64,000 nt of DNA from Escherichia coli. Its GTDB lineage: Bacteria > Pseudomonadota > Gammaproteobacteria > Enterobacterales > Enterobacteriaceae. Made by a program: the position numbers. The stretch lies in assembly GCF_030013205.1 (NCBI RefSeq), contig NZ_CP122648.1; one strand, 5' to 3'. Positions 24,901 to 30,900 of the stretch are shown one piece after another. The stretch's first letter is position 1. The number at the start of each line of letters is the position of its first letter.

Positions 24901-27900
24901 AACTATTTTTTATATCAATGTTACCTTGTCGAATAGCAACTGCATAACTTCCATGCTCCCCGGTTTCAAGTGCCACATAATCTAAATTAATATATGCTTT
25001 TTCCCCATTAGCATAAGCACCATAGCTATTAGTGCCATTAGTTGTTATGGAACCACCATTCATTTTTAAATCAGCACGGCTAATAACTTCGTAACTGTTA
25101 GAATCACTAACTTCATCATCTACAGCATCGACACATGTTCGAGACTCTCCAGGACTTGAACATGCAAGAACACCTACTGCATTTTCCCCATAGGTAACAA
25201 TGTTCGTTTTATCTGTGGTTTCAAGACGGGTGTTATTTTCCACAATCCCAGAATCATTAACCTGACTTAAAAGTCCCGCTGAATATGCCCCCCTCGTCTC
25301 GACTGAATTATCACCATTCATAACGATGGTGCCACCAAATTCACTGACTACTGCGCTGGCTGTTATCCCTCCATTAACATCTTGGTTATTTCCTTTGTCA
25401 GATACGCTTCCAGAGGTCTTAATATCGCTATCGCTTATATAATACTTTGTTATGACTATCAACAGAAATACCATAAGATCCATCACCACTAGTCATCACA
25501 CTGGCATTATTTATATATCCAGTTACACCGTCATCCACTTTCACAGCATGGCTTTCGTCTTTAGTGGTTAGATACTCTCCATTACTTATCGAATTATTAT
25601 CTTTGATTTCAATCGGCGATTCTTCATCAGTTATATAGGAAAGTATACTATAATCATCCAACAATTGTGTTGCATATGCATTACCCACCGCCAAAGCAAT
25701 AAGTCCTAAACTAAACCCGGGGAGTTTTTTCAGTTTCATAGATTAACCATCCATTCATTGGATTAACAAACATTCCTGGTCAAATAACCTATGAGTTCAG
25801 ATTACCAAAACGGAGGGTAAAGACAAAAACAAAAGCACAAAAAATTTAAATAGATAAACAGCGACAATATATAAATGATAAATAAGGCGGCATTATCATT
25901 TTTCACCTTATTTTCATGACATTGATCACTTTGGGGTGACGATTTTGTTTAACAAATAACTCTTCGACATCAAAATTATTAATAGTTGCCATAGAAATTA
26001 TTTCGATGATATATAAAACCAACTGTGATAACACCAGGGTTGACAACTATTTGCGCAATAATTCCTTTCCTTCAATGATCCAGGCGTTCACTGTCAGCAC
26101 CCCATTCAGCCGCATACTGACAGTGAGAAACTGAAAGATTATTGCTGATCCCTGTGGCTGACGAGTCTTTCCCTTAATCGATTAACCAGATTGATCGCCA
26201 GCCAAACAAGGGCATTAAGCAAATTTATCGTCACAAGCACTTCTCCCAGCCCGGTACTGGGTTTTGCAATAAGGATGACCAGGAGAGTGATCAGCATAAA
26301 TGCAATGGAAAAGATGATATAGAGAGTGAAATAATCCAGATTATTACTATTGTTCATGCTACTAATGGCAATCCTGTCAAAACTTTCAAACAATTATAGC
26401 AAACAAAATAATGAACAATAGTAACAAGAGGCAACGAGCTAATTAGCTGTCTATAATTACACCGCACCATGGCCTTACTGATCGATTTTCACTCAACCAC
26501 AACCTTCACCTTCGGTTTAGAAAGGATAATTTTGACCAGGTCGATGTATGTTACCGGTTTATAGAAATAATAACCCTGCTGAAATGTGATATTATTTTGA
26601 TTCAGATAGTCAAGTTGTTCTTTCGTTTCGACACCTTCAGCGACGATACTGATCGAAAGTTTACGCGCCAGATCCAATACACAATCCAGAATCCGAGTTG
26701 ATTCTGGGTCTGCGTTTACGCGGCCAACGAAACTGTGATCAATTTTGATATAATCAATATGCAGGTCATGCAGATAAGAAAGCCCTGAGTAGCCAGTACC
26801 GAAATCATCCAGCGCAATGACAAAACCATTTTCATGCAGAATGTTCAACCGCTGAACCAGACTTTCATCAACATTTAATGGCTCACGCTCGGTAACTTCC
26901 AGAACGAGGTTTAAATCGCGACGGGTAAAACTGTCACGGTAATTTAAGCACTCGTCGACAAATGTCGGCGAAATAATATGCGAGGCGCTAAAATTAATCC
27001 CAATATGAAAACCTTCCGGCAGTTTACTCGCGATAGCGTTCATCTGTCTGGCAACCTGATTCATCAGGCTTCGCGTAAGCGGAACGATTAATCTGGATTT
27101 TTCAGCAAGTGGAATAAATGCCGCGGGTGATATATATCCACCGTGAGGTTGTTTCCAGCGGGCTAACACCTCAACTCCCCGCAATGTCCCTTCCCGACCA
27201 TTTACCACAGGTTGGTAAAATGGGACGATCTCCCCATTATTTATAGCCCGTCGCAGGATCTCTTCAGGCGTTGCGCTTTTATTGAAATACCTATCAAGCA
27301 GGAAGGCAGCGGCGCAGGCGATTAACAGAATAAATATCAAAATCCCAAAGCCTTTATCGATAAGTCTGTAGAAGCTAAAGAGTGGCGGCGGGTTAAAGAT
27401 AATAGTGAAATGATATTTTGTGGAGTGAACCTTCTCGGTATAGGGATAGTGTCCATTAAGCGTCATCACATCACCCGTAGGTCCAATAATGTCATCTGCC
27501 ACGCGTAATACATACCTTACCCCTTTCAAGGGTACATTAAGCGCCCCGCGAATATGCTGATCACTTATCGTAACCAAAATGCGCGTATCTGCAAATTGGC
27601 TCTGATAGAGCAGGATAGGTAATCTATTAACGGTGTCGATTGCCGGAGCCAGCAGTAAATTACTGGATTTGCCCCTATATTTCCAGACATCTGTTATCAC
27701 TTAACCCATTACAGGCCCGCTGCCGCAGATATTCCCGTGGCGAGCGATAACCCAGCGCACTATGCGGATGCCATTCGTTATAATGCTCGAACGCCTCTGC
27801 AAGGTTCTTTGCTGCCGTTAACCCGTCTGGTTTGGGCATGATACTGATGTAGTCACGCTTTATCGTTTTCACGAAGCTCTCTGCTATTCCGTTACTCTCC

Positions 27901-30900
27901 GGACTCCGCACCGCCGTGTTCTTCGGTTCAAGTCCCAACATCCGGGCGAACTGGCGTGTTTCATTAGCCCGGTAGCATGAACCATTATCCGTCAGCCACT
28001 CCACTGGAGACGACGGAAGATCGTTGCCGAAGCGGCGTTCCACCGCTCCCAGCATGACGTCCTGTACTGTTTCACTGTTGAAGTCGCCGGTAGTCACCGC
28101 CCAGTGCAGTGCCTCACGATCACAGCAGTCCAGCGCGAACGTGACACGCAGTCTCTCTCCGTTATCACAGCAGAACTCGAACCCGTCAGAGCACCATCGC
28201 TGATTGCTTTCTTTCACGGCCACTCTGCCTGTATGTGCCCGTTTCGATGGCGGTACAGCAGGTTTTCGCTCAAGCAACAGCGCATTCTGGCGCATGATCC
28301 GGTAAACACGTTTGGCATTGATCGCAGGCATACCATCAAGTTCTGCCTGTCTGCGAAGCAGCGCCCATACCCGACGATAACCATACGTGGGCAGCTCTCC
28401 GATAACATGGTGTATACGGAGAAGCACATCCGTATCATCAGTGTGACGACTGCGGCGGCCATCCATCCAGTCATCGGTTCGTCTGAGAATGACGTGCAAC
28501 TGCGCACGCGACACCCGGAGACAACGGCTGACTAAGCTTACTCCCCATCCCCGGGCAATAAGGGCGCGTGCGCTATCCACTTTTTTGCCCGTCCATATTC
28601 AACGGCTTCTTTGAGGAGTTCATTTTCCATCGTTTTCTTGCCGAGCAGGCGCTGGAGTTCTTTAATCTGCTTCATGGCGGCAGCAAGTTCAGAGGCAGGA
28701 ACAACCTGTTCTCCGGCGGCGACAGCAGTAAGACTTCCTTCCTGGTATTGCTTACGCCAGAGAAATAACTGGCTGGCTGCTACACCATGTTGCCGGGCAA
28801 CGAGGGAGACCGTCATCCCCGGTTCAAAGCTCTGCTGAACAATTGCGATCTTTTCCTGTGTGGTACGCCGTCTGCGTTTCTCCGGCCCTAAGACATCAAT
28901 CATCTGTTCTCCAATGACTAGTCTAAAAACTAGTATTAAGACTATCACTTATTTAAGTGATACTGGTTGTCTGGAGATTCAGGGGGCCAGTCTAATTACT
29001 GTCCGGGAAAACAGGAATACGAGACAGTAGGACCCGATTCCCCGGTAAGGATGTACACCAGACCGTTCCCTGTTTGAGAATGATGATTGTGCGCAGGTGA
29101 GGTTTCAGAGCTGCTTCAGTGCCAAGCTGATATTGCTCCTCGAGGTCGCATTCCTTCCCGGCAATGTTAACCGCCGTTTGAGTCGCCTGTGACGCTTCTT
29201 CAAGTATATGATTGATATTGTTGGCGGCATATCTTGCTCCCGCCAGGTACTCTGCTTTTGCGGAATACCAGAGCTGGATGTTCAAAATAGTGACACCGGT
29301 TATAAACAAGCATATCGCAATGAAGATGGGTATGAGTGTATTGCGCATTTGCTTGTCCCGGCCAAAGGGTTTAATACATGAAAATGCCATTCATTCGCTC
29401 GCACTGGCATCTACAGAGAGCATGGTAGAGAGCATAAGAAATATCCACGCTGAAGATAAAATTTTCTCCATCTTCATCTAACCTATTAATTATTGAGCAC
29501 AATGTAGTCAGAATTAAACAAATTAGGTGGGATATCAGGCGTCAAGAATGGAAAACGAGCGCTCTCCATTCCTGTTTGCCCCCTGATATTGCGGATATAT
29601 TAAGAAAGCATAACGCCTGAAATGCTCACTTTGCACCAGCATGATGATACAGCTGATGTTTATTCTATAACCTTACTCAAGTTCTAAGAGAGCACTGATT
29701 CCCTGTCATTAATAATGATATCCGTTAGTGTAGTCTTATGCATTTCAATGTACTGCAAGATTTGCAGATAGAGATCAGAAAGAATCACACTAGTTTCATC
29801 TTTTAAACGCAAGCGTAAAGCCTTATCAATAATATGACTATCAACATACCCGTGCGTCATGAGCACCTCCCTCTCGAGATTTTTAAACAAAGCACATTGA
29901 AAAATAAATCTCTCGGGGATTGAATTATTCATGTCAGCCTCGTAGGAATATTGACCCAATAAAATTATGCTGTGTATAGTCTAAAGCGACAGACAAAAAT
30001 AAGATGACTGAGTTTTCTATAAACTTATACTTAATAATTAAAAGTTACATATCATCAGCTGTGTATCGCAACACGATTTCCAGTGTTTTTCTAATCACAT
30101 CAGCTTTGAGAATATCACTTGTTGTTTCCAGAGAGTGTATCAGACTTAAGATAATATTTTTATTATTAACATTATCGCCTGAAAGCATTAAATTGGTCAC
30201 AGCCTGCCCTAACACAGCTGACTCTTCTTCTAACAAATTACCTGAACTACGAAAGTAGCTTGATAACGCTTTATCAGTTATTGCATTATGAATTGTAGTA
30301 TCTTCAAGCATGGTAACCTCTCATCTTACTTATGAAATTTTAATGTATTCTGTTTATTTTCTTACCATTGAACATACTTTTATTGTCAGCTATCGCTGTT
30401 CTTCTGTTTGGCTCTCCTGTATCACTGTTGCTAAAATCACGAATTATGCTGTCAATTAAATCTCGTCGGAAAGCATTTTCCTCAACCGATTTCATTACGA
30501 GTAATTGCTTAATAAGAGTCTGTAACGAAAAATTTATCTTCATGCGCAGTATATGGAGCACCGCCTGGCCAGTAATTTCATATTTTGTACTTTCATTATC
30601 AGATGTCTTCATAACGACTTCATAGCTAACCTGTTAAATAATCAGGCTGTTGCATTATTCAAAAAGCAACCCAATTAGTGCATTATAATGTTTCTGTTCC
30701 TCTTCCCCTGTCGCTTGTTCCAGTCGGCATAGAAGTTTGGCACAAAGCGACTTTCGACTCAGATTACGTCCATCTTTCAAAATCTCAGTCACAATTTCCC
30801 CGAGAGTTTCCTGCTGAGTAGGCAAGTTAGCTTTTGCAAAGTAACGAGTGATTGCTCCCGCAGAATCTAAAGTCACTGAATTTTGATGCATGCTACGCCT

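Follow-up and report, generated by a model that had tools for sequence, protein, structure and literature searches.

PdeG (YcgG) is one of five CSS-domain EAL phosphodiesterases in Escherichia coli K-12 (PMC5897775). Of the CSS-domain phosphodiesterases it is conserved least, and knocking it out has mild phenotypic effects (PMC5897775, PMC6385356, PMC13320778). Shortened forms of such enzymes can work: the N-terminally truncated YcgG2 of B2 strains is made and active (PMC6385356), and a cloned PdeC fragment consisting of TM2 and the EAL domain is highly active (PMC5897775). The insertion sequence IS2 has inverted repeats of 42 bp (IRL) and 41 bp (IRR), and its targets coincide with intrinsically bent DNA or adjoin it (PMC3299598). 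Its IRR end carries an outward -35 element (PMC9330008; the concept is also given in PMC3299598), and IS2 fusion promoters have formed at ampC and acrEF (PMC9330008).

Here, a pdeG gene interrupted by IS2 was analysed within 64,000 nucleotides of E. coli DNA, a stretch referred to as the window. The account that we favour, at a probability of roughly 0.85, is that a canonical IS2 has produced a likely null pdeG allele in a porcine enterotoxigenic clone, at a site which IS2 hits recurrently and non-randomly.

A complete IS2 inside pdeG

The first-pass annotation had called the inserted element IS2, and comparison with K-12 IS2A confirmed this identity. The element is 1331 bp long with the expected imperfect IRL and IRR, and 5 of 1331 positions differ in the nucleotide comparison (99.6% identity). 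One of the five substitutions lies at IRL position 32, and the outer 11-bp cleavage domains are identical to those of K-12. The coordinates of this and the other features are collected in Table 1. The start had previously been placed at 27666, which is 2 nt too far inside; that position was wrong because it is incompatible with the ATTAC repeats given in the same annotation, and the true start is 27664. The element is the single IS2 copy within the whole window and is transcribed codirectionally with pdeG. Its orfA, orfB and A6G frameshift site are all intact and, judged by these sequence features, the copy appears able to transpose. In strain ETEC4079, RefSeq/PGAP annotates an IS2-family transposase in the same place and notes its programmed frameshift.

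The clean 5-bp duplication of ATTAC described earlier was present on both sides of IS2. Both copies abut the IS2 ends directly, and 5-bp target-site duplications (TSDs) also flank 14 other mapped IS2 copies. When the pdeG parts were rejoined (26489-27663 plus 29000-29348), the frame was open over 1524 nt (507 aa), and in it ...VFPDSN continues into LLLAPAIDTV... The two fragments, said to join into one PdeG-like protein, were aligned to intact PdeG and did reconstitute a contiguous protein, identical to K-12 PdeG (b1168) at 497 of 507 aa (10 aa differences, 98%) and differing by 2 aa from the intact allele of strain RIVM_C039205. Excision of IS2 together with one ATTAC copy gives intact PdeG with no further lesion. 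The absence of any other defect from the rejoined gene shows that the insertion is recent.

The rejoined protein shows the domain order TM1, CSS, TM2, EAL, with Pfam matches to the CSS-motif domain (PF12792) at 31-217 (E 1.5e-31) and to EAL (PF00563) at 251-486 (E 3e-66), and with TM2 as the hydrophobic run 221-239. The break falls between codons 118 and 119, within the periplasmic CSS sensor domain, and this domain is therefore cut in half. Thus IS2 does not part the sensor from the EAL domain, as had been proposed, but lies within the sensor, upstream of TM2 and EAL. The conserved cysteines C67 and C98 are both on the N-terminal piece. The terminal TAG of IRL is a stop right after codon 118; it occupies 28992-28994 and closes the ORF 28992-29390 behind ...VFPDSN. 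In ETEC4079 both pieces are already marked as pseudogene fragments by RefSeq, the 5' one as 'CSS-motif domain-containing protein, missing C-terminus' and the 3' one as 'cyclic diguanylate phosphodiesterase, missing N-terminus'. Gene-by-gene comparison also bore out the neighbourhood as first described: ymgF, ymgC, ariR, ymgA, ycgZ, bluF and bluR lie around pdeG, and the order ymgC-pdeG-ymgF is the same as in K-12.

Table 1. Features at the interrupted pdeG locus (window coordinates)
Feature	Coordinates	Strand	Description	Basis or remark
Complete IS2	27664..28994	-	1331 bp; IRL end 28994, IRR end 27664	Comparison with K-12 IS2A
IRL	28953..28994	-	42 bp, imperfect	Inverted-repeat alignment
IRR	27664..27704	-	41 bp, imperfect; faces pdeG 3' fragment and ymgF	Inverted-repeat alignment
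IS2 orfA (insC)	28538..28903	-	121 aa	ORF scan; HTH_Tnp_1, E 1.8e-19
A6G slippery site	28580..28586	-	-1 frameshift giving OrfAB transposase	Lone AAAAAAG, IS2 position 409, in orfA/orfB overlap
IS2 orfB (insD) frame	27675..28580	-	301 aa, DDE integrase core	rve, E 8e-19; rve_3; HTH_21
TSD ATTAC, IRL-side copy	28995..28999		5 bp	pdeG coding nt 350-354
TSD ATTAC, IRR-side copy	27659..27663		5 bp	Read at IS2 junction
Palindrome CAGTAAATTACTG, left part	27653..27663		13-bp perfect palindrome spanning the target	Completed by TG at 29000-29001
Candidate weak hybrid promoter	27657..27685	-	TGGAAA-17-TAATTT	By eye; 7/12 positions, below 9/12 threshold
pdeG 5' fragment	28995..29348	-	Codons 1-118; TM1 and first half of CSS domain	Contains Cys67 and Cys98
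pdeG 3' fragment	26489..27658	-	Codons 119-507 and stop	Second half of CSS domain, TM2, EAL
ymgF	26139..26357	-	131 bp past pdeG stop	Possible target of IS2 polarity or read-out

Recurrence of the insertion in other genomes

The window is near-identical to porcine ETEC4079, from which it differs in being without a 1.57-kb IS200C-ymgK-iraM repeat unit. Among 5426 complete E. coli genomes, 17 carried IS2 at the exact pdeG site (seven porcine ETEC, seven ACN001-type avian genomes, RS571, a fox isolate and EM10-18-28), and the site was uninterrupted in 3943. The same-site insertions occur on three pdeG allele backgrounds, in both orientations and with two IS2 variants. When the three allele groups are compared with one another, divergence is 2.0-2.9% in the pdeG flanks and 0.2% or 4.4% in IS2. 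These three backgrounds, two orientations and two variants therefore imply 3-5 independent IS2 insertions at a nucleotide-precise hotspot, which is new here.

That the insertion arose during assembly or laboratory passage and is absent from the natural strain is scarcely conceivable. IS elements may transpose in culture and repeats may be misplaced in assemblies, but both junctions are 100% identical in the seven independent, separately sequenced complete assemblies of porcine ETEC, so an assembly artefact is excluded, and the 5-bp TSD is clean and the flanks are unique. The shared ATTAC junctions might also go back to one old insertion, inherited or horizontally transferred, in which case there would be no hotspot. 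The identical junctions within the seven ETEC and within the seven avian-type genomes, each group being probably clonal, are consistent with such descent, as are the near-identical flanks and identical IS2 of ACN001 and the fox isolate and, likewise, of RS571 and EM10-18-28. However, the flanks diverge right next to the junction: on the IRR side there is an A/G difference only 11 nt away from IS2, and on the IRL side there are differences at 2 and 10 nt past the TSD copy. The divergence of IS2 and that of its flanks are discordant, being 0.23% versus 2.9% in one pair and 4.4% versus 2.2% in another. Moreover, the five rejoined ORFs are all intact across 2-3% divergence, indicating purifying selection on pdeG until recently, and in two occurrences IS2 is reversed and has an identical TSD, which neither descent nor transfer can produce. 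One ancient insertion or transfer was rejected as largely refuted on these grounds and is very improbable. Repeated insertion is thus the preferred reading, with the caution that identical IS junctions across strains need not reflect common descent.

Effect on PdeG and read-out from IS2

IS2 would have arrived by the usual IS3-family copy-out/paste-in pathway, duplicating ATTAC within pdeG. The 5' piece, with TM1 and half of the CSS domain including both cysteines, stops immediately at the TAG of the IS2 tip. The 3' piece, which holds the remaining half of the CSS domain followed by TM2 and EAL, is deprived of promoter, ribosome-binding site, start codon and the membrane-targeting TM1. From its sequence, pdeG::IS2 is most likely a null allele that has lost enzyme function. 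The loss sits among ycgZ-ymgA-ariR and bluF-bluR, genes tied to biofilm and RpoS control, and may slightly shift biofilm behaviour. Apart from the repeated hits on the same five bases, pdeG::IS2 would be an ordinary gene knockout.

Rather than killing pdeG, IS2 might rewire it, yielding a truncated, constitutive TM2 and EAL protein without the redox cysteines and perhaps more ymgF expression, either because transcription from the transposase promoter reads through or because a hybrid promoter joins a -35 in IRR to a -10 in the flank. Read-out transcription is geometrically possible because the IRR end points towards the pdeG 3' part and, 1.3 kb downstream, towards ymgF, and scans found no intrinsic terminator-like site on that strand, whether in IS2 or in the interval from pdeG to ymgF. 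From a GTG inside IS2 (27700), an ORF of 403 codons runs in frame to the pdeG stop, and internal in-frame pdeG starts such as ATG183 (preceded by GGGTG) and TTG225 are present. Because of this ORF, these starts and the active truncated relatives YcgG2 (PMC6385356) and PdeC (PMC5897775), some EAL activity could persist if the fragment were transcribed and membrane-inserted, and the fusion promoters at ampC and acrEF (PMC9330008) point the same way. Against rewiring, a consensus scan at a threshold of 9/12 found no promoter at the IRR-pdeG junction; the candidate chosen by eye, with its -35 TGGAAA in IRR (27685-27680), a 17-nt spacer and its -10 TAATTT in the flank and TSD (27662-27657), matches 7/12 positions. 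The Shine-Dalgarno sequence is weak or absent at the candidate starts, and in a fragment without TM1 ~100 periplasmic residues would have to cross the membrane unsignalled. At the same site, insertions of the opposite orientation have IRR facing away, indicating that the recurrence is independent of read-out. The earlier proposal that outward promoter activity of IS2 could alter ymgF expression thus holds for the geometry, but the scan gave it no consensus promoter. Taken together, rewiring is unlikely, and the null allele is preferred.

The local hotspot and its relation to known systems

The ycgZ-ymgF stretch gathers IS2 far more often than two control sites. IS2 was found within ~1.4 kb of the pdeG site in 113 genomes (70 with IS2 in one orientation, 43 with it reversed), compared with 11 genomes at hlyE and 0 at potA, the control sites being searched in one orientation only; the enrichment factors are rough because the genome counts lack phylogenetic independence. 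The search for neighbouring IS2 joins pieces on one strand only, so the orientations were queried separately. An apparent orientation bias, in which the first 12 neighbouring IS2 were all codirectional with pdeG, was discarded as an artefact, since the reversed-IS2 query returned the 43 opposite genomes.

IS2 hot targets in phage P1 were reportedly described by Sengstag and Arber in the 1980s. No clear consensus motif was seen when 13 distinct target sites were aligned in IS2 orientation. A resemblance of the target to the IS2 ends was also tried and rejected, since its local alignment score with IRL/IRR was 12, and the background score for the locus 13.6 +/- 2.1; targets like the IS ends are reported for some IS3-family elements. 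Only 4 palindromes in the 3.66-kb locus have 6-bp arms; CAGTAAATTACTG, which spans the target, is one of them, and each of the five hotspot contexts contains it. Local DNA shape or this palindrome is the probable cause of the hotspot, an explanation favoured because published IS2 targets adjoin or coincide with bent DNA.

With ATTAC (pdeG codons 117-118, within CAGTAAATTACTG) as a nucleotide-precise landing site for IS2 in either orientation, the repeated hits might also be kept by selection, but this further reading is doubtful. If it were true, the benefit would lie in PdeG loss or in a constitutive, IS2-expressed TM2 and EAL fragment that replaces the redox-gated enzyme, and IS2 would act on the c-di-GMP network as a recurrent mutational switch. 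The hosts concerned are animal-associated E. coli, namely porcine ETEC, poultry strains and a fox isolate. An exact 5-bp site hit at least 3-5 times in both orientations is a handy natural test case for the poorly understood target choice of IS2. In the library searched, we found no paper linking pdeG or ycgG to IS2 insertion; two papers matched because both words occur in them.

Compared with PdeG of K-12, the gene in the window encodes the same 507 aa layout of TM1, CSS domain with two cysteines, TM2 and EAL between the neighbours ymgC and ymgF, and differs in being interrupted between codons 118 and 119, where K-12 has no IS2. The IS2A copy in yaiX of K-12 shares with the present element its length, the 42/41-bp imperfect repeats, orfA and orfB with the A6G -1 frameshift, and a 5-bp duplication. 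It is likewise intragenic and leaves its host gene as two pseudogene fragments, while the five substitutions, one of them in IRL, set the present element apart. A further natural lesion of this gene, the ycgG2 allele of B2/NMEC strains (PMC6385356), has cost it the N-terminal region with the membrane and sensor parts. However, ycgG2 is a deletion; the remaining ORF of 283 aa starts with TTG, and both its translation and its activity have been demonstrated, whereas the pdeG allele described here is an IS2 insertion in which the full coding sequence is kept in two pieces. Finally, like the IS2 hot spots and bent-target preference described before (PMC3299598), the insertions at this locus are non-random, clustered in a short region, found in both orientations and without a clear consensus, but here natural lineages have been hit repeatedly at a single, exact 5-bp site within a chromosomal gene.

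IS2 in pdeG and its surroundings

The region was read and the ends of the IS2 element were checked, placing its start at 27664 rather than 27666, as the first-pass annotation had it. The ATTAC repeats described there were confirmed as a target-site duplication (TSD), each copy directly abutting one end. The ends aligned as an imperfect 42-bp left (IRL) and 41-bp right (IRR) inverted repeat, the lengths known for IS2 (PMC3299598). Compared with K-12 IS2A, five substitutions in 1331 nt were observed, including one at IRL position 32, and the outer cleavage domains were unaltered. 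It qualifies in full as an IS2, and the window contains no other copy.

Removal of IS2 and one ATTAC copy gave an open frame of 1524 nt (507 aa), showing that the flanking fragments join into one PdeG as proposed. The rejoined protein differed from K-12 PdeG at 10 residues and from the product of the intact RIVM_C039205 allele at 2; the gene itself is orthologous to K-12 pdeG. No further frameshift or stop was found in the rejoined frame, indicating from the sequence that the insertion is the sole lesion in pdeG and evolutionarily recent. The TSD corresponds to coding nt 350-354, and the break therefore falls between codons 118 and 119. The periplasmic sensor domain is thereby cut in its middle, rather than being separated from the EAL domain as had been suggested. 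The IRL adjoins the 5' fragment, and its terminal TAG forms an in-frame stop right after Asn118.

Features of the window and of the rejoined PdeG (window coordinates unless residues are given)
Feature	Position	Strand	Remark
pdeG with IS2	26489-29348	minus
IS2	27664-28994		1331 bp
TSD copies	27659-27663; 28995-28999		ATTAC
orfA			121 aa; HTH_Tnp_1
A6G slippery site			single copy present
orfB			301 aa; rve, rve_3
GTG start within IS2	27700
CSS-motif domain	residues 31-217		Pfam
CSS-domain cysteines	C67, C98
TM2 hydrophobic run	residues 221-239
EAL domain	residues 251-486		Pfam
ymgF	26139-26357	minus	downstream of pdeG
IS200C	34187-34945
IS200C, third copy	5802-6521		between ycgB and fadR
dsbB	9187-9717		18 kb from pdeG
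ypjA/EhaD-like adhesin gene	~18299-21733		between minE and ymgJ
ycgH-type autotransporter	~23078-25739

A sequence near-identical to the window lies in the chromosome of the porcine enterotoxigenic strain ETEC4079 (Belgium), in which PGAP already annotates the pdeG 5' piece as 'CSS-motif domain-containing protein, missing C-terminus', the element as an IS2-family transposase with programmed frameshift and the 3' piece as 'cyclic diguanylate phosphodiesterase, missing N-terminus'. The neighbouring genes listed previously, ymgC-ariR-ymgA-ycgZ and bluF-bluR, were all found, upstream of pdeG. Where the window has one IS200C, ETEC4079 (locus L001, 18789-21078) has two direct copies around ymgK and iraM, the latter encoding an anti-adaptor that stabilises RpoS. 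The 1.57-kb ETEC4079 unit containing iraM had no match anywhere in the window, suggesting that recombination between the IS200C copies deleted it. The third copy is 98.6-98.8% identical to those near iraM. The ycgH-type autotransporter, also a pseudogene in K-12, is annotated in ETEC4079 as two overlapping CDSs (2397 and 312 nt), suggesting a frameshift near the 5' end. The autotransporter adhesin gene spans 3.4 kb, whereas K-12 has just a ycgI pseudogene remnant at this position. CSS-domain phosphodiesterases are gated by disulfide formation, which DsbB drives (PMC5897775); the proximity of dsbB to pdeG is probably a coincidence.

Consequences for pdeG and ymgF

By default, pdeG::IS2 would be read as a null allele, with a probability of roughly 0.8-0.85. 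The estimate is not higher because precedents for active truncated forms exist: PdeG with an N-terminal deletion (YcgG2, 283 aa) is translated and phosphodiesterase-active (PMC6385356), and the paralogue PdeC shows high activity as a TM2+EAL fragment (PMC5897775). An active truncated PdeG could conceivably be made from the 3' part, because a 403-codon ORF runs from the GTG within IS2 in frame into it, and in-frame internal starts are present at ATG183 and TTG225. However, the ribosome-binding sites of the candidate starts are weak, no consensus promoter was found at the IRR-pdeG junction, and the 3' fragment lacks TM1 as well as a promoter, start codon and ribosome-binding site of its own. The null allele remains the preferred reading. 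The physiological effect of losing pdeG is likely small, because PdeG shows the lowest conservation among the five CSS-domain phosphodiesterases (PMC5897775), is weakly expressed and gives mild knockout phenotypes (PMC6385356, PMC13320778).

Read-out from IS2 into ymgF, also proposed in the first-pass annotation, would fit the geometry, with a weak candidate promoter sequence. The IRR faces the pdeG 3' part and ymgF, with no terminator-like site between IRR and ymgF on that strand, and its outward -35 is the one used by known fusion promoters and by the promoter of the minicircle junction (PMC3299598, PMC9330008). On the other hand, the best candidate at sequence level, TGGAAA-17-TAATTT, agrees with the consensus at no more than 7 of 12 positions. 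A polar effect on ymgF would be as plausible as activation.

Insertions at the same five bases

The allele was counted with 120-bp junction-spanning queries against 5426 complete E. coli genomes. Both junctions were present in 15, comprising 7 porcine ETEC genomes (100% identity), 7 ACN001-type strains including ACN002 (4 from duck or chicken, 3 without listed animal host) and the human isolate RS571. A reversed-IS2 query detected the opposite orientation at this site in two further genomes: EM10-18-28, isolated from chicken meat, and an isolate from a Norwegian fox. Each was confirmed to have ATTAC duplicated as well. The uninterrupted site was found in 3943 of the 5426 genomes; most others had no match to this part of pdeG, which would fit ycgG2, an N-terminal deletion allele of B2 strains (PMC6385356). 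In ACN002 (NZ_CP007491.1), the two junctions lie at 1923968-1924087 and 1247477-1247596; being ~676 kb apart on opposite strands, they imply a large inversion, one end of which lies in the pdeG IS2 copy.

Five same-site contexts (the window, ACN001, RS571, the fox isolate and EM10-18-28) were compared. They represent three pdeG allele groups, whose 1524-nt coding flanks are 2.0-2.9% different, and differences come close to the element: on the IRR side an A/G difference at 11 nt from the end of IS2, and on the IRL side differences at 2 and 10 nt past the TSD copy. Divergence of IS2 was not in step with that of the flanks, the window differing from ACN001 by 0.23% in IS2 and 2.9% in the flanks, and from RS571 by 4.4% and 2.2%. 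The rejoined ORF was intact in all five contexts, and ~50 nucleotide differences between the window and K-12 coding flanks result in just 10 amino-acid changes, indicating that pdeG diverged under purifying selection and was interrupted recently. In two allele groups, both IS2 orientations occur on almost identical flanks, each with its resident IS2 type, which rules out one insertion spread by descent or transfer. By these comparisons, IS2 has inserted independently into these five bases at least three times, and probably five.

A distinct IS2 variant, ~95.6% identical to canonical IS2, was found in RS571 (L004), EM10-18-28 (L019) and 13TMH22 (L017). Its annotation reads just 'IS3 family transposase', and it uses this hotspot and the region around it too; the copy in EM10-18-28 has a length of 1330 bp and a frameshift.

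IS2 across the ycgZ-ymgF region

Nineteen fetched IS2 copies mapped to 13 distinct sites between ariR and ymgF. Within ~1.4 kb of the pdeG site, IS2 was detected in 70 genomes in one orientation and 43 in the other, versus, at two control sites queried by the same design in one orientation, 11 genomes (hlyE, dispensable) and 0 (potA); all these counts take in clonal relatives and are a rough measure only. The ycgZ-ymgF region clearly collects IS2. Its G+C content is 40%, making it AT-rich relative to the window (49%).

In Ec-2844 (L007, 2625-3955), IS2 (TSD GTCCC) sits 11 bp ahead of the pdeG start codon with its IRR toward the intact gene, a candidate promoter-replacing or activating insertion with an outcome opposite to the window's. 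In FJ_Ec_21 (L014, 3307-4637; also YZ_2_2), IS2 lies beside ymgC without a TSD and directly abuts bluR; ariR, ymgA, ycgZ and bluF are missing from this locus, the blue-light and biofilm module having been lost in a deletion next to IS2. IS2 also splits ymgF, in both orientations, in several human and porcine strains (fetched loci L006 and L012, search hits H215-H219), among them SCU-172, which has a small deletion beside IS2 and no TSD.

The pdeG target lies within a perfect 13-bp palindrome, CAGTAAATTACTG, one of four palindromes with 6-bp arms across the 3.66-kb locus. As a cause of the hotspot the palindrome, spotted after the fact, is suggestive. The target showed no resemblance to the IS2 ends, and the 13 IS2 target sites gave no consensus. 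IS2 targets have been reported to lie at or beside intrinsically bent DNA (PMC3299598).

Insertion sequences are well known to disrupt genes, and RefSeq already marks the disrupted pdeG as a pseudogene. In the literature searched, no paper linked pdeG or ycgG to an IS2 insertion. What is new here is the evidence for a recurrent, orientation-independent IS2 hotspot at the pdeG site.
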